A DNA stretch of 64,000 nucleotides from an uncultured Chryseobacterium sp. (lineage in GTDB: Bacteria > Bacteroidota > Bacteroidia > UBA10329): assembly GCA_964488095.1 (NCBI GenBank), contig CAZATP010000007.1:29959-93958 (forward strand). Direction: 5' to 3'. The number at the start of each line of letters is the position of its first letter. The stretch's first letter is position 1. Shown here piece by piece: positions 36,001 through 48,000 of the stretch. The position numbers were made by a program.

Positions 36001-39000
36001 CTGAAAGGGTGGTGAGTATGGCGTGGGTGTGGCCATGGGCACCGAACTCGACCTGAGGCCCCGCCAGTGCCCGCACATCATCAGCGCTCATCATGCGCGA
36101 GTAACGCACTTGGCCCCCTGCCATCCGACTCATGTCTAATGTGAACCGTCTCTTGTCCGCAGGCGATAGCGCAGAGAGTATGGCGGTGAAGGTATTCTCG
36201 GTGTCAATCGGTCTGACACGGTCTATCACCACCTCGTGGTCCATCAGATCCGGATGGCGGAAACGCTGCATGGGGCTGCTGTTGAGGATGTCGTACACGC
36301 GCACGAAGTCCTGCGGAAGGCCGGTTTCGAGTATCTCGGTATCCACGTTCACATTGAACTTGAGCTTCAGTTCGGAGAGGATTGGATACGCGTTCTGCAC
36401 TATGTCGTAGTGCGCATCGTCAAACGATATGATGACGGCCGGCCGGGACGATCCAGCGAAGTGTGAGGCCACCTCCGAGACGTGGATGATCTCGAAGTGC
36501 TTCTTCACGAACCTACAGATTTGGTCGAACACTGCCACCGGCATGGCCTGATAGAATGTCCGTGGGTCATTGTTGACCTGATGGAACATGAGGATGTAGA
36601 GCCGTCTCGGCCGATTGCGCAGCAGCAGATAGTCGAGGGAGAGAATCCTCAGGAGAAGGAAGAAGAGTCGTCTCATTCGTGGTCTGATGCTATTTCACTC
36701 CGCAACGGTGCGGCCTGTGGGAGTCATGATTCGGTCTTCCACTCCAGTTTCGGCCTCACCACTCCATTGATTTTGCCCATGTAGGCATGTTCCCGTTTCA
36801 CATCGTCAACTATGAACGAGATGAGTCGTTCGTGGACATATAGCGGCTGCATCTCCTCAGTGGCCAGATAGAGGTTGACTGAGTACTGTCCATCATTGAG
36901 AAACTGTGCCGGTATCTTGCAACATACGGTCACATCCTCTCCATGTCTCACATCGGCCATGGTGCCCGACCCGAAAACGATGATATCCTGGGCGTTGAGC
37001 AGGTCGTAGATGACTCTGATGCGTCCCTCCCCGGTCTGGTTGCGGATATTGAATCTTAGTGCCATGGGTTCTTCCACTGTCACACGGCCTGGATGGGCTT
37101 CGGCCATCATGACACGCACCCTGTCGTTGCCGGGTGCATCCAGTGCGTTGTTGAACGCAATGCGACTCAACACCTTGCCGTCATTCAGGCTTAGATATCT
37201 GCCTACCACGTCATCGGCACTTCCTTCATGGGCCACCTTCCCGTTGACCATCAGGATACCCCGTGTGCATAGCAGTCCCACAGCAGCCATGTTATGACTC
37301 ACGAACAGTATGGTGCGGCCCTCATTGCGTGAGATGTCTCCCATCTTGCCAAGACAGCGTTTCTGGAACTCGGCATCGCCCACGGCCAATACTTCATCCA
37401 CAATGAGAATCTCCGGCTCCAGATGTGCGGCCACAGCAAAGGCCAACCGCACATACATGCCAGAGGAGTATCGTTTCACGGGAGTTTCAAGGTAGCGTTC
37501 CACCCCGGCAAAGTCCACGATCTCGCCCAGCTTACGGGCAATCTCGTGCTTCTTCATGCCCATGATGGCCCCGTTGAGGAAGATGTTCTCCTTGCCGGTC
37601 AGTTCGGGGTGGAACCCTGTACCCACCTCCAACAGGCTGGCAATGCGGCCCTTCACCTTGATGTTGCCGATGGTCGGGGCCGTTACGCGCGAGAGCAGTT
37701 TGAGCAGTGTGCTCTTGCCTGCCCCGTTCTTTCCGATGATGCCCAGCACTTCACCCTGTTGCACCTCAAAGTTGATGTCGCGCAGCGCCCATACGTAGTT
37801 GCTGTCGCCAGCGGTGGAGCGGTCATTGGTCTCGCCCAACTTCAAGGTCGGGTCCTCCTTGCCGCGCACGCGATGCCACCAGCCTTCGAGGTCATCGCGC
37901 ATGGTGCCAGAGCCCACAAGGCCCAGCCTGTATTGCTTCGACACGTTCTCTACCTTGATGACGGTGGACATTTCTTACGAGCTATTCGCTGTTCGCCAAA
38001 CGCTAAAAATCAATTTTCAATCAGACGGTATCCATGAACGTCTTCTCTGTCCTATGGAAAAGGATGGTTCCCAACAGGAGGGCTCCCAAGGTGAAACCTG
38101 CGCTGTACAGCATTCCGTCCATCGTCACGGTTCCAGTGCCAGTGAATCCGAGTCGGAACATCTCAACGAGTGGGGCAATGGGATTGAAGTGCACAAACCA
38201 TTTGTAGTCATCAGGTATCGCTGAGGTGGGGTAGATGACTGGGGTGGCATACATGAGCAGTTGCACCCCGAAGCTGATGAAATAGGTGAGGTCGCGATAT
38301 TTGGTGGTGAACGATGAGATGATGATGCCCACGCCCAAGGCCATGCCGCCCATCAGCAGCACGATGAGAGGGAAGAAGGCGAGGTAGGGGGTGAAATGCA
38401 GCGTGCTGCCTTCCTGCATCCGATAGTAGAACAGGAAGACAAGGAACATCAGCATCTGTACCCCGAATTTGAACAGATTGCTGATGATCATGGCCACCGG
38501 GGCCGCCAATCTTGGGAAATACACCTTACCGAAAAGATTGGCATTGGAGACAAAAGTGTTAGATGCCCCACCGAAGCAGGCGGAGAAATAGTTCCACAGC
38601 GTGGTGCCGCCCAAGTAGAAAACAGGGGCGGGGATGCCATCGGTAGAGATGCCAGCGATACGGCTGAACACGAAGGTGAACATGATGACCGTGAACAGCG
38701 GGCTGAGGAAGAACCACAGCGGTCCCAGCACGGTCTGCTTGTAGGTGGCCACAAGGTCCCTGCGCACGAAAATGGCGATGAGGTCGCGGTAGTCCCAAAG
38801 TTCGGCCAGCCGCAGGTCATACCATTTGTCCTTGGGACCTATGACGAGGTCCCACTGTTCGGTATCGGTCTGCGCGGCAGTGCTCATTCCCGTTCCTGTT
38901 TCACTGCAAAACCGGACTGCATGAGATGCACCCTCCGTCCGAAATGCGCAAGGTCGCTTTGCACCATCTCTGTGATGAGCTCGTCCAAGGAATACTGCGG

Positions 39001-45000: not shown

Positions 45001-48000
45001 CATTTCTCCATTCCGCTCTGCAGCGGATAGCACTTGCCGATGTTATGCAGGGAAATGGCATTCATATCCTGTCCGCTATCTTGAGTTCCATCCGCCTGAA
45101 CGACCAGATTCCGCTGAACAGAATGACCAGTGCACCCGCAGTAGCCAGAAGAACGGGAGTTGAAGCGCTGTCTGTCAGGCCCGATGCACTTCGCAGAAGA
45201 GCCATGGACACCGCTATCGGATTATCCGAGTAAGCTTTACTAAACACGGGATAGGGGATGCCTTGAAGTGTTTGAAATACTGGGAAGATGAATAGTCCGG
45301 CATACATGACCATCGGTATGGCATGTCGCACATGGCGGTTCTGCACCACTGCACATGCCGCGAAGGCAGAAAGTCCCAGAACGGTGATGAAAATGAGGAG
45401 AAAAGCCATCGGGATCTGCCACAAGGCCATCCAGCGGAAATCAATACCTGACAACATGACCACAACTATCAGGAGAAGGAAGGAAATCAGGAAATCCAGA
45501 CCGGAGCGGGCCACAGGGGCAAGCACCAGATAGAATCGGGGAAAGTAGACCTTGGAGATCATGCTGGAATTCGTGTGCACATAGTTCACTGTGGCGCTCA
45601 CGGCCGAAGTCGAGAAATTCCACAGAATGATTCCTGCGAACAGGAATGCGAAATGTCCCTTTTCATTTATCGGAGACGGTGTGGCACCGAATCTGAGTAG
45701 TGTGCCGATGACCAGCAGATAGGTCAAAGGCTGTGAAACTGCCCAGAAAACACCCGCCAGCGGATGACCATATTGCACTTTCAGGTCTTTCCATACCAGC
45801 ATGCGCAGGGTTTCTCTTCTTTCGAAAAGCTGTATCAACCAGTCGCGGAGCGGCTGCCTGCCAGTGATGTGACGCACATGCTGCATGTTCTGACCTGAAG
45901 TTCAAATGTAGCAATGCCCGAACCGTGAGGGAACGCTCGAAAAACGGGATGATCTGCGCAGATTAATTCCCATACTTTTGGCGCAGTGATTTTTAACCCA
46001 AAAACTATTTTTCATGAGCACGATTGAATTGAATGAATCCGAGTTGAATGAAATGAAGCGTTTTTACCTCTCCCAATTGGCAGAGGCGGAAAGCAGGGTT
46101 GCCCACATCAAGAGTGTTCTGGCCAAACTCGGTGCGCCAGTGGCCTCTGCTGCCGTGGTGGCAGTCGAGGTGGCGGAGGCAGTCTTGGAAGCGGCTGAGA
46201 CATCTCAGCAGGAATCGGAGCAAGGCGCAGATGTGGAGGTGCGTGAGGCCACTGTCTCCTTTATACCGGAAGAGTATACCAAGCGTGGTCCGGGTTCGAA
46301 GCGCAAAAAGGAGCGCAAGAGCAAGTGGGCCACCTACATTCTTAATACGTTGCGTTCCAAGGGTGAGCTGATGACCGCCTCTGAGGTGGTGGCCCATGCC
46401 ATGAAGCGCACTGCGAATCAGGAGGCCGGTGAGCTGACCGTCCGTGGAGGCATCAACGGAAGTCTGAACCGTTTGGCAAGTGAGTATTTCCGTCTGCGCA
46501 CGCTGCAGGTGGAGGGTCGCAGAGGACGCTACTATGGTCTGGCCACGTGGTTCAACAAGGACGGCTCGTTGAAGCCCGGCTTCGGGGAGCGTTTCGGCAA
46601 GCTGAACATCACCGTGAAGGATGCGGTGGATGCTGCCTCTGACGAAGATTGATTCATAGCCGCAGCAAGCGGTAATGAGCATCCCGATAGACCTCCTGCC
46701 AATGGAGGTCTGTCGGGATTTCTTTTTCTATCGGCAGCACAACGGACGTGCAGCCGAATTCCGTTCTCAAGATCTCCAGCCGTTCTGGAGTCAGTGGCGC
46801 AGCGTAGAAAGCGTTGACTGCCCGCTGCCGATCGAGGAGTTCGGGCAGTTGCAGGCCGTGCACCAGATGCTCGTCTGCCACCACGGCCACGGCCGCGTTC
46901 ATGCGCAGGGTGGACAGGTCGGTAGGCATCATCACCACTTCGTTGGCCACGGCCTCCTTCTTCAGGAATAGGATGAGGCCCTGCTCGGGCAGCGCTGCTC
47001 GGAACCGTTGGTCCATCACCATTTCCAGCATCCCGGAACCGATCGCCCCCACGATGACGCAAATCATCAGACCCACATGGAGCGTAGGGCGCATCGTCCA
47101 TTTCATCCGCAGCCAAGGAGCACCTGCAAGGACGATGGCCACGGCCACGGTGCCGATGCGCCAAAGCGAGAGAAAACCCTCATCTGCCGATCCGAACACA
47201 CGGAAGAAGGCAAAGGAGCCGAGCAGCACACCACCCACCAGCAGCACGGACAGCGCCCATGCAGGGAAGGTGGGGATGTTGGGCCTCGACAGGGCCTTGG
47301 CGAGCATCAGCACTGCGCAGGCGGGCACCAGCACCACACTGATGCGCCATGGGGTGAGGCTGAGCAGCGTCTGGCTCCCAGTGATGAGCGTGAGGGCCGT
47401 GAGCACCACCGTGAGCACCACCCATGCACCGATCGGCCTGCCGACCGCTTCTTTTCTGAGGAACCACAGGCCTGCGGTCAGGAGCACGAGTTGAAGCAGG
47501 GTCTTGGCGTTGAGCCACAGGGCAGGGGAGAGGTGGGGGTTGCCCGCTGCGGTCTGCAGCACGGCCTGATGGAGGGCCGCTGCCGCCTCCTGCGAGTGGG
47601 GCAGGAAATGGACGATGATGTAAAGAAGCTTCGGCATCACCACCACCACGCTGACCAAGGACCAGAGCACCGTCTGCCGCAAGGCTGTCCGCCCATCCCT
47701 GATGAACAGCAGCAGATAGATGAGGCCCATGCACCCTCCGATGAAGAGGTAGTTGGCATGGAAGATGGCCGCCATGGCAAGCGACAGGAAAGTGCCCCGT
47801 GCATTGTTCCTTAGGAAATAATGCACGGAGAGCAGCAGGAAAACCCCGAACACACTGGGCTGCAGATAGCCGCGCAGCACGCCCTGCTCGGCCAGCCCGC
47901 TGTCCCACACCCAACTGAGGTCGATGCCGAACAGGATGCGGAACAGCCCCGCCCAGATGGCCCCGCTGTGCAGCAGCAGGAAGAGAGCGGTGAACAGGGC

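Follow-up and report, generated by a model that had tools for sequence, protein, structure and literature searches.

The locus described here, a long gene cluster for surface sugars, probably comprises two self-sufficient cassettes for ABC-transporter-dependent glycans, lying side by side, with each exporter serving a glycan of its own. This reading rests on the deep divergence of the two exporters, on the different carbohydrate-binding domains of their ATPases and on the occurrence of each gene block alone in other genomes. Of the alternatives raised by the earlier note, comparative genomics favours that of two distinct glycans.

Two complete exporters in one locus

Pfam and NCBIfam scans of the window (the whole stretch of 64,000 nucleotides that was analysed) identified two complete Wzm/Wzt pairs on the minus strand, with matches to ABC2_membrane and ABC_tran at 36724-38887 and 43977-45886, exactly where the earlier note had placed them (Table 1). 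The genes that it had read between the pairs, gmd, two family-2 glycosyltransferase (GT2) genes and a two-domain enzyme (GT649), were confirmed by Pfam and TIGR01472. The absence of Wzx and Wzy also held: when the large ORFs of the whole window were scanned with Pfam, none matched Polysacc_synt (Wzx) or Wzy_C (Wzy/WaaL). The window also yielded no initiating phosphoglycosyltransferase and no WaaL-type ligase. The host is an uncultured Flavobacteriales bacterium, a diderm of the Bacteroidota that has type IX secretion cargo.

All cassette genes of both pairs and their blocks read in one direction, with p212 on the opposite strand. From wzm2 through GT2_347, neighbouring genes overlap or abut (the wzm2 stop and wzt2 start overlap by 4 nt), and gmd and wzm1 also overlap by 4 nt. 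No convincing terminator separates the pairs (16 terminator-like sites against 12.9 +/- 3.7 in shuffles). Co-transcription of these overlapping or abutting genes would also fit a single joint pathway.

Table 1. Features of the two-exporter locus, in window positions. The start of GT2_347 was taken from its 347-aa orthologue in a close strain (L003).
Feature	Position	Strand	Remarks
mem560	46654-48336	-	Polytopic membrane protein, 560 aa; first gene of block 2
p212	46014-46652	+	212 aa; between mem560 and wzm2; no Pfam match
Wzm2	45062-45886	-	ABC-2 permease of exporter 2, 274 aa; PF01061 43.9 bits (gathering score 26.9)
Wzt2	43977-45065	-	ATPase of exporter 2 (residues 1 to ~221), 362 aa; ABC_tran 66 bits
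Wzt2 C-domain	43977-44402	-	Residues ~222-362; rare Wzt-type carbohydrate-binding domain
GT649	42024-43973	-	Two-domain glycosyltransferase, 649 aa; C-terminal half GT4 (Pfam)
GT2_312	41093-42031	-	GT2, block junction; PF00535 76 bits
GT2_347	40089-41132	-	GT2, block junction; PF00535 110 bits
gmd	38884-39996	-	GDP-mannose 4,6-dehydratase; TIGR01472 581 bits (cutoff 415)
Wzm1	38021-38887	-	ABC-2 permease of exporter 1, 288 aa; ABC2_membrane PF01061 72 bits
Wzt1	36724-37971	-	ATPase of exporter 1, 415 aa; ABC_tran 77 bits
Wzt1 C-domain	36724-37185	-	Residues ~263-415; widespread Bacteroidota type
Polysaccharide deacetylase	35699-36676	-	Pfam
GNAT	34719-35702	-	Pfam
WbqC	34007-34696	-	Pfam
PglD-like acyltransferase	33372-34010	-	Pfam
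GT-B-like protein	32135-33370	-	411 aa; Pfam
Seven glycosyltransferases	within 14118-32131	-	Six GT2, one GT4; Pfam
Second GNAT	within 14118-32131	-	Pfam
MBOAT, Acyl_transf_3	within 14118-32131	-	Pfam
IS3 remnant	26692-27260		Variable distal part
Carbamoyltransferase	18814-20679	-	Pfam
DegT	17002-18138	-	Pfam
GFO/IDH/MocA oxidoreductase, GT61	within 14118-32131	-	Pfam
SAM methyltransferase	14118-14828	-	Pfam

The exporters are old paralogues with different binding domains

Judged by their sequences, the two pairs are old paralogues and clearly different. The ATPase domains of Wzt1 and Wzt2 are 54% identical and the permeases only 24%. The Wzt1 ATPase domain shares 48% identity with Aquifex Wzt, and Wzt2 shares 34% with it over 339 aa, C-domain included, so that the paralogous Wzt proteins are almost as distant from each other as from Aquifex Wzt. 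These values, with C-domains about 10% identical, speak against the duplicated exporter of the earlier note if a recent duplication is meant.

The C-terminal extensions were said to be about 150 and about 120 aa long and to differ from each other. The first length is close to what we find for Wzt1 (~155 aa beyond the ATPase domain), but that of Wzt2 is greater (~140 aa). The difference between them is real: BLASTP detected no similarity between the two extensions, and profile-profile alignment (hhalign) related them at a homology probability of 91.9% (E 7e-7) with ~10% identity. Pfam Wzt_C matches both below its gathering score of 30.4 (Wzt1, 22.7 bits, E 1e-4; Wzt2, 24.4 bits, E 3e-5). Structure prediction with AF2 (pLDDT 88.4 for Wzt1 and 84 for Wzt2) gave confident beta-sandwich models, superposable on the solved carbohydrate-binding domains of Wzt proteins, in agreement with the kind of extension that the earlier note had suspected. 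The best Foldseek matches were the Aquifex aeolicus, Escherichia coli O9a and Raoultella terrigena O12 domains, and for Wzt2 all 17 of the 17 best matches were Wzt binding domains.

The two domains differ greatly in how common they are. The Wzt1 type, which ends in a conserved GK(I/V)NGxxRPxLxW motif, is shared by 111 of 121 proteins, 120 of which are Wzt-search matches listed. The family profile of the Wzt2 C-domain matches 6o14/8dky (E 4e-12), and at E<=1e-3 the domain was found in only 30 cluster representatives among 1.84 billion. C-domains are also exchanged between near-identical ATPase domains, as in P0079, P0096 and P0105, whose ATPase parts are 86-88% identical and which are unrelated beyond them; this is as expected if the C-domain sets substrate specificity. 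Both C-domains may bind terminal caps.

Two blocks that occur together and apart

Another 12 fetched loci (on 11 contigs) show the tandem order, so the gene arrangement is not due to chance; in the more distant of these loci the proteins are 33-60% identical. In only some tandem loci does gmd lie between the blocks. The blocks also occur separately. In three metagenome contigs (L022-24), mem552-Wzm2-Wzt2-GT652-GT2-GT2 forms a stand-alone operon with housekeeping genes on either side. In one assembly (GCA_964500205.1) the locus is split, with block 2 on contig 6 beside an ABC-F gene (L018) and block 1 on contig 3 (L007). Pair 1 represents the exporter type common in Bacteroidota, and WbqC, a PglD-like acyltransferase and DegT usually come after it; the single-exporter loci of F. 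psychrophilum and Cloacibacterium caeni contain Wzm, Wzt, WbqC, PglD-like, DegT and glycosyltransferase genes. The junction genes GT2_312 and GT2_347 accompany block 2 in the stand-alone operons and block 1 in the split genome, and because they associate with either block, the blocks may share steps. Between close strains the blocks diverge at different rates, with block-1 core proteins 96-99% identical to those of L003 and block-2 proteins 75-88%.

Two further genes always accompany pair 2. Wherever a fetched locus extends far enough, GT649 lies directly 3' of the Wzt2 orthologue; it is the dedicated glycosyltransferase of the block. The earlier note had described it as a GT-A/GT4 enzyme. Its GT4 half is borne out (residues 312-623 match GT4 Pfam families at 1e-17 to 1e-7), but Pfam does not recognize GT-A in the N-terminal ~290 aa of this sequence, which have no PDB match, and only two of nine orthologues weakly match Glycos_transf_2 (GT2; E = 1e-3). 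The N-domain is unclassified, probably GT-A-like, and has an invariant EDD motif; conserved motifs are present across the orthologues. A WbdD-like terminator, one side of the WbdA/WbdD logic named in the earlier note, is not supported: no kinase or methyltransferase domain was detected in GT649, no coiled coil was evident on reading its interdomain linker, and WbdA has two GT4 modules whereas GT649 combines one with the unclassified N-domain.

The second gene, mem560, precedes Wzm2/Wzt2 in all fetched loci whose 5' flank is long enough. It has no sequence match in Pfam, NCBIfam or PDB, and five of seven orthologues weakly match DUF6798 (best E 1e-4). A crude hydropathy scan placed 12 hydrophobic windows, some of them overlapping, in the part up to about residue 441, ahead of a C-terminal soluble domain of ~120 aa. 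Its motifs are strongly conserved, including loop motifs with invariant Asp/Pro residues after the first hydrophobic segment. We consider mem560 a candidate periplasmic transferase or ligase, which would act after export. Its neighbour p212 occupies the same position in L003, L009/L019, L018, L026 and L027 (59-91% identity) and is absent from L011, L012 and L022 among the fetched loci compared; a hairpin with a 16-bp stem follows it at 46681-46719.

Block 1 continues with modification genes (32135-36676) and a variable distal part (14118-32131). WbqC, PglD-like and 385-411-aa proteins also follow Wzm/Wzt in F. psychrophilum and Cloacibacterium. The distal part differs in gene content from that of the close strain L003, and the stretch at 22-32 kb is low in GC (45-50%). 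One of its GT2 genes (28124-29092) is read as a membrane-anchored polyprenyl-phosphate type. The methyltransferase and the carbamoyltransferase are only candidates for the terminators of block 1; block 2 has no terminator candidate apart from its own glycosyltransferases.

A model for two glycans and its alternatives

We propose that block 2, upstream, comprises mem560, Wzm2, Wzt2, GT649 and probably the two junction GT2 genes. Its glycan would be assembled at the cytoplasmic face, with polyprenol as the carrier, and exported by Wzm2/Wzt2, with the rare Wzt2 C-domain selecting the finished chain. Because the block itself encodes no synthesis of nucleotide sugars (gmd is downstream of block 2 in the window), we infer a short-repeat glycan made from common nucleotide sugars. 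Block 1, downstream, would consist of gmd, Wzm1 and Wzt1, then WbqC, the PglD-like acyltransferase, DegT and many glycosyltransferases and modifying enzymes. Its product may be a second, more decorated glycan with an N-acylated amino-deoxy sugar, possibly of the perosamine type derived from GDP-mannose, and would be exported by Wzm1/Wzt1, an exporter type common across Bacteroidota.

Several observations would also suit one composite product, in which two chains are exported separately and then joined periplasmically, or put on the same acceptor, by mem560. The tandem order is kept over deep divergence, the genes are tightly packed and the pairs are not set apart by any clear terminator, the one split genome still contains both blocks, the junction GT2 genes go with either block, and mem560, large, polytopic and with conserved loop motifs, always accompanies pair 2. 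However, block 2 stands alone on contigs without block 1 nearby, block 1 is found widely where block 2 is absent, no resemblance of mem560 to GT-C enzymes or WaaL could be detected, and an opposite-strand gene separates mem560 from wzm2; we regard a composite product as unlikely. Two exporters for a single polymer that receives either of two caps (for example, by condition), with one cap for each Wzt, are harder still to reconcile with channel-forming permeases that differ so much, with Wzt paralogues nearly as far apart as from Aquifex Wzt, and with a pair 2 that has its own accompanying glycosyltransferase and is found by itself elsewhere. Such a scheme would account for C-domains that are different yet homologous and for the several possible capping activities in the locus (methyltransferase, carbamoyltransferase and acyltransferases), but we give it a low probability.

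The idea that one of the pairs does not export a glycan of this locus, being instead of TagGH type, a KpsMT-type capsule exporter or a decaying copy, draws on the best NCBIfam match of both ATPases, the teichoic-acid export model PRK13545. The scores, however, are far under the cutoffs (209 and 177 bits against 538; KpsM model, 35 against 300), and A. aeolicus Wzt (1e-62, 8e-57) outranks TarH/TagH (about 1e-47) among PDB matches. Neither glycerophosphotransferase nor KpsC/S/D/E genes turned up in Pfam scans of the window, the host, with its type IX secretion cargo, is a diderm, and both frames are intact, with conservation reaching to distant relatives. This idea, whose TagGH form the earlier note had named as a way for its reading to fail, is thus largely refuted and, in our estimate, very improbable.

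Comparison with known systems

The A. aeolicus WzmWzt O-antigen ABC transporter (PDB 7K2T, 8DKU; carbohydrate-binding domain 6O14, 8DKY) is the best PDB sequence match of both Wzt proteins, over the ATPase domain only for Wzt1 and full length, through the binding domain, for Wzt2. Both C-domain models superpose on its binding domain, although Wzt1 does not match that domain at the sequence level. Its ligand, a 3-O-methyl-mannose cap (PDB entry title), is not transferable to Wzt1 or Wzt2, and both Bacteroidota C-domains end in additional conserved tails (GKINGxxRPxLxW in Wzt1, PYGFHNPxxIQ in Wzt2). E. coli O9a (Wzm/Wzt, polymerase WbdA, terminator WbdD) shares the logic of a permease paired with an ATPase that ends in a beta-sandwich, together with a multi-domain glycosyltransferase encoded beside Wzm/Wzt, and its Wzt C-domain (2R5O) is among the top fold matches. 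By contrast, the present locus has no WbdD-like kinase-methyltransferase, and the C-domains are 12-16% identical to it in structural alignments. The Wzt of R. terrigena/Klebsiella O12 (PDB 5HNO, 5HNP) binds a Kdo cap; no Kdo-transferase (GT99) domain was detected in our locus, and sequence similarity is negligible (Wzt2 C-domain profile, E 0.46). TagGH/TarGH wall teichoic acid exporters (PDB 6JBH, 9CFL) belong to the same ABC-2 exporter superfamily, with ATPase domains clearly related to Wzt1 and Wzt2 (about 1e-45), but they score lower than Wzt and have no tag/tar counterparts here.

The Pseudomonas syringae TET operon, with wzm, wzt, a bifunctional WbdA-like glycosyltransferase and an O-methyltransferase, is a compact cassette for transport, elongation and termination that is exchanged as alleles between strains (PMC7820976). 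Block 2 matches this layout (Wzm2, Wzt2, GT649) and likewise diverges faster than its neighbours between close strains, but it lacks a methyltransferase, includes the conserved 560-aa polytopic membrane protein and adjoins a second complete exporter. The locus is a conserved form of a known pathway and no new kind of system. We infer the sugar chemistry of both glycans; since either exporter can be found by itself in other genomes, the most likely outcome is that the cell exports two different sugar polymers.

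Two divergent exporter pairs in one glycan locus

Every gene from 14118 to 45886 lies on the minus strand, making up a single long glycan locus with two Wzm/Wzt ABC exporter pairs. Each pair consists of an ABC-2 permease gene adjoining an ATPase gene of the Wzt/TagH clade, and Pfam scans of the window's large open reading frames (ORFs) found no match to the Wzx (Polysacc_synt) or Wzy/WaaL (Wzy_C) families, in agreement with an earlier note that had described two complete pairs and no Wzx/Wzy. The gmd gene, two GT2 genes and two-domain enzyme placed between the pairs are also present, and the C-terminal half of that enzyme (GT649, a 649-amino-acid glycosyltransferase) is GT4 as claimed, but its N-terminal half had been called GT-A, a fold that we did not recognise in this protein. 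Both Wzt proteins carry the C-terminal extensions noted before, although that of Wzt2 measures about 140 amino acids rather than about 120. Because the gene identities, the coordinates and the absence of Wzx/Wzy are as first described, the description is correct apart from three small corrections: the length of the Wzt2 extension, the Wzt_C score and the GT-A assignment.

Genes of the two exporter pairs and genes between or beside them in the window
Feature	Position	Strand	Length	Family evidence
Wzm1	38021-38887	-	288 aa	ABC2_membrane (PF01061), 72 bits
Wzt1	36724-37971	-	415 aa	ABC_tran, 77 bits
Wzm2	45062-45886	-	274 aa	ABC2_membrane (PF01061), 44 bits
Wzt2	43977-45065	-	362 aa	ABC_tran, 66 bits
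gmd	between pairs	-		TIGR01472, 581 bits
Two GT2 genes	between pairs	-		Pfam
GT649	between pairs, 42024-43973	-	649 aa	C-terminal half GT4
mem560	46654-48336	-	560 aa	
p212	46014-46652	+	212 aa	

The host is a Bacteroidota diderm. DnaA is encoded in the window too, as are an SprB-repeat protein bearing a CHU_C signal for type IX secretion and further type IX sorting domains. Scans for promoters and terminators gave counts at chance level (the sigma-70 consensus used is not appropriate for Bacteroidota), and the terminator scan found no convincing terminator between the two pairs. The variable part of the locus is marked by low GC at 22-32 kb and by a remnant of an IS3-family transposase at 26692-27260 (-), identified from translations alone. 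The remnant comprises an 88-amino-acid OrfA-like helix-turn-helix ORF (26994-27260) and a 102-amino-acid fragment (26692-27000), and it sits in a 940-bp gap between a GNAT gene (27444-28127) and a GT2 gene (25501-26505), inside a low-GC variable block of glycosyltransferases.

The best Protein Data Bank (PDB) match for both Wzt1 and Wzt2 is Aquifex aeolicus Wzt, which shares 48% identity with the ATPase domain of Wzt1 and 34% identity with Wzt2 over 339 amino acids, C-domain included. Between the pairs, the ATPase domains are 54% identical, the permeases 24%, and the C-domains (the regions beyond the ATPase domains) have no BLASTP similarity. Judged by this divergence, the two pairs are old paralogues, and a recent duplication of the exporter is rejected.

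Other exporter families can also be set aside. The possibility, raised in the earlier note, that one pair is a TagGH teichoic acid exporter finds no support: scores for the NCBIfam TagH models PRK13545 (209 and 177 bits against a cutoff of 538) and PRK13546 (161 and 153 bits against 320) fall far short, and tag/tar glycerol-phosphate or ribitol-phosphate transferase genes are absent. Likewise, the KpsM model of the KpsMT capsule exporter matched Wzm1 only, at 35 bits against a cutoff of 300, and the partners KpsC/S and KpsD/E are absent from the window. Scores far below the family cutoffs, together with missing partner genes, thus exclude both identities.

Two Wzt C-domains with one predicted fold

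Both C-domains match the Pfam family Wzt_C (PF14524) below its gathering score of 30.4 (Wzt1, 22.7 bits, E 1e-4; Wzt2, 24.4 bits, E 3e-5), and precomputed PF14524 matches exist in several orthologues. The alignment of Wzt2 with full-length A. aeolicus Wzt extends into and across the carbohydrate-binding domain, and a profile of the Wzt2 C-domain type (22 sequences) matches the isolated A. aeolicus domain (6O14, 8DKY; E 4e-12). The Wzt1-type profile (38 sequences) had no match among PDB sequences. Aligned to each other with hhalign, the two profiles gave a probability of 92% over 134 columns at about 10% identity; the extensions therefore differ, as the earlier note had proposed, and are far from the near-identity that a simple duplication would have left. 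AlphaFold2 models of the C-domains (pLDDT 88.4 for Wzt1 and 84.0 for Wzt2) are both beta-sandwiches, and for both the top Foldseek matches are the Wzt domains of A. aeolicus (8dl0, 8dky), Escherichia coli O9a (2R5O) and Raoultella terrigena O12 (5HNO), with generic sandwich domains scoring alike; for Wzt2, the best 17 matches are all Wzt domains. Taking fold, position in the protein and profile links together, rather than fold alone, we assign both C-domains to the predicted Wzt-type carbohydrate-binding fold, the outcome of the alignment and structure comparison that the note had suggested.

The two types differ in distribution. With a full-length alignment of Wzt1 and Wzt2 as the query for the Wzt protein search, the Wzt1 type proved very common in Bacteroidota, its C-domain being found in 111 of 121 proteins (120 of them among the matches listed for that search). 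Among the matches listed, Wzt1-type proteins mostly show 55-60% full-length identity and include those of Flavobacterium, Cloacibacterium, Pedobacter and Empedobacter; their C-domain has a conserved GK(I/V)NGxxRPxLxW motif at its end. A word-index search with the C-domains alone returned 1 and 0 matches, and the locus search for the Wzt2-type C-domain used a narrow alignment of 6 sequences. The Wzt2 type, with motifs HxSNRF, LKPGxY and PYGFHNPxxIQ, is rare: in an exhaustive HMMER scan, only 30 of 1.84 billion cluster representatives matched at E<=1e-3, and 7 of them reached E<=1e-10. In the examined family members with the N-terminus present, the domain is fused to a Wzt-like ATPase. Weak, repeated matches (4-9 stretches each) also occur in giant proteins of 1,600-4,000 amino acids (P0126, P0129, P0130, P0136, P0141 and others), where they probably reflect Ig-like sandwich repeats in surface proteins.

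Four database proteins (P0079, P0096, P0105 and P0119) share 85-88% identity with Wzt1 across the ATPase part (63-65% of the query) and carry unrelated C-domains, which have proper Pfam Wzt_C matches. Binding domains have been exchanged recently among close relatives, and different C-domains on near-identical ATPase parts fit the idea of the C-domain as a specificity module.

The two blocks occur together and apart

Mapping the window's proteins onto every fetched locus revealed a recurrent tandem order: mem560 (a polytopic membrane protein), sometimes p212, Wzm2, Wzt2, GT649, two GT2 genes, sometimes gmd, Wzm1 and Wzt1. We refer to the part from mem560 to GT649, probably with the two junction GT2 genes, as block 2, and to gmd, Wzm1, Wzt1 and the genes downstream as block 1. 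The order was found in L003 and L004 (a near-identical strain), L009/L019, L010, L011, L012, L017, L026, L027, L035, L036 and L037, the last of which stops short of the Wzt1 position. In the more distant of these loci, identities fall to 33-60%, and recurrence at such low identity indicates that the tandem arrangement is conserved in a group of mostly uncultured Flavobacteriales. GT649 directly follows Wzt2 in all fetched loci long enough to show it, and Wzm2 and mem560 precede Wzt2 wherever the 5' flank suffices.

Each block is also found alone. Flavobacterium psychrophilum (L020) and Cloacibacterium caeni (L021) have a single Wzm/Wzt1-type pair, followed by WbqC, a PglD-like acyltransferase, DegT and a 385-amino-acid glycosyltransferase homologous to a 411-amino-acid protein of the window (E 6e-35). 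This cassette (Wzm, Wzt with GKxNGxxRPxLxW, WbqC, PglD-like, DegT and a GT-B-like protein of 385-411 amino acids) spans 9124-14852 in L020, 8955-14892 in L021, and 32135-38887 plus 17002-18138 in the window, where DegT is displaced about 15 kb down the locus and Wzt1 is followed by an inserted deacetylase and GNAT; the literature searched held no study of its product. Conversely, block 2 forms a six-gene operon (mem552, Wzm2, Wzt2, GT652, GT2, GT2) in L022, L023 and L024, flanked by D-Ala-D-Ala ligase and Ham1 genes on one side and thioredoxin-like and phosphoesterase genes on the other. In GCA_964500205.1, the blocks lie on separate contigs: block 2 on contig 6 (L018) beside an ABC-F gene, as in the window, and block 1 with the two junction GT2 genes on contig 3 (L007).

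Divergence within the locus is mosaic, as is typical for surface-glycan loci. Between the window and the close strain L003, the block 1 core (Wzt1, Wzm1, deacetylase, GNAT, PglD-like and gmd) is 96-99% identical, block 2 (mem560, Wzm2, GT649 and Wzt2) 75-88% and WbqC 86%; the distal glycosyltransferase set differs, a fused 880-amino-acid double GT4 in L003 replacing a 450-amino-acid GT4. Between the window and L019, identity is 96% for the neighbouring ABC-F protein and 49-87% for the glycan proteins.

Enzymes and accessory genes of block 2

WbdA has two GT4 modules, and WbdD joins a kinase and a methyltransferase domain to a coiled coil. In GT649, a single GT4 module covers residues 312-623, and the N-domain gave no kinase or methyltransferase match, only spurious PDB matches and very weak GT2 matches. 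We therefore reject a WbdA/WbdD polymerase-terminator pair, a logic of which the earlier note had been reminded, and with it a WbdD-like terminator. For mem560 and its orthologues, searches of Pfam, NCBIfam and PDB sequences, including GT-C (PMT/ArnT/PglB) and Wzy_C, gave no usable match; five of seven orthologues weakly match DUF6798. The conserved p212 gene is present in about half of the related loci; it separates mem560 from wzm2 and reads in the opposite direction. A hairpin with a 16-bp stem (46681-46719) follows it, within the 3' end of mem560. The p212 protein is a candidate regulator of the operon.

Two side-by-side cassettes as the favoured reading

We favour a reading in which two self-sufficient cassettes lie side by side and export distinct glycans, one of the options in the earlier note, since both blocks occur alone elsewhere. 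Block 2 itself lacks genes for sugar-nucleotide synthesis, gmd lying downstream of it in the window; it would probably make a simple glycan from common precursors through GT649, perhaps together with the two junction GT2 enzymes, and Wzm2/Wzt2 would export it. Besides gmd, DegT, the PglD-like acyltransferase and WbqC, block 1 has Pfam matches for two GNATs, a deacetylase, many glycosyltransferases, MBOAT and Acyl_transf_3 O-acyltransferases, a carbamoyltransferase and a methyltransferase. Its product would probably be a heavily decorated glycan with an N-acylated amino-deoxy sugar, and the known chemistry of Gmd, aminotransferases and acetyltransferases suggests N-acetyl-perosamine from GDP-mannose as a putative route. 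If the C-domains recognise chain caps, a SAM methyltransferase (14118-14828) and the carbamoyltransferase (18814-20679) are no more than candidates for a terminator in block 1, and none was found for block 2 besides its own glycosyltransferases. A GT2 of block 1 (28124-29092, -; Pfam GT2 match) reads from its translation as a membrane-anchored polyprenyl-phosphate type, and a PMT_2 (GT-C) gene (20462-21248) closes the related locus L007; together they suggest further glycosylation of the exported glycan in the periplasm. In sum, the sequences and models show gene identities, folds and divergence and that the blocks are separable and conserved, whereas the substrate of each exporter, the recognition of caps, the sugar chemistry and a role of mem560 after export are inferences.

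A joint product built from two exported chains is possible: the genes are tightly packed with no convincing terminator between the pairs, pair 2 always comes with mem560, and the junction GT2 genes go with either block. A more specific version seems to us rather improbable, namely that block 2 is an undescribed self-contained cassette, made up of Wzm, a Wzt whose binding domain is rare, a bifunctional GT-A-like/GT4 enzyme and a polytopic DUF6798-like protein, in which mem560 is a new periplasmic glycan transferase joining the Wzm2/Wzt2 chain to the Wzm1/Wzt1 chain or to a shared acceptor in this Flavobacteriales lineage; if true, it would represent a two-chain assembly fed by two ABC exporters. 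That the pairs are alternative exporters for one polymer is unlikely, given the low permease identity and the autonomy of block 2.

Relation to known systems

To our knowledge, what is known of ABC-transporter-dependent glycans derives almost entirely from Proteobacteria and Aquifex. The literature searched held nothing on Wzm/Wzt systems in Bacteroidota, although the Wzt1 type is very common there, nor on two Wzm/Wzt pairs in one locus, the function of WbqC or DUF6798. The closest systems are A. aeolicus WzmWzt, E. coli O9a, Klebsiella/Raoultella O12 and the 'TET' operon of Pseudomonas syringae, a compact unit of wzm, wzt and genes for a bifunctional glycosyltransferase and a methyltransferase that strains exchange as alleles (PMC7820976). 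Unlike these, the present locus has two complete exporters within one conserved locus, no recognisable WbdD- or WbbB-type terminator, a bifunctional enzyme with an unclassified N-domain, and a second pair accompanied by a 560-amino-acid polytopic protein whose family was not recognised.

The locus is real and conserved, a variant of a known pathway from a phylum that has been little studied, and it does not overturn current models. It defines two cassettes: one, conserved in Bacteroidota, combines Wzm and Wzt with WbqC, DegT and a PglD-like acyltransferase, and the other, which is rare, includes a polytopic membrane protein with a possible role after export. Since its two exporters differ in their binding domains, a single cell provides a natural test case for how the Wzt C-domain sets the choice of substrate, and also for the membrane protein.
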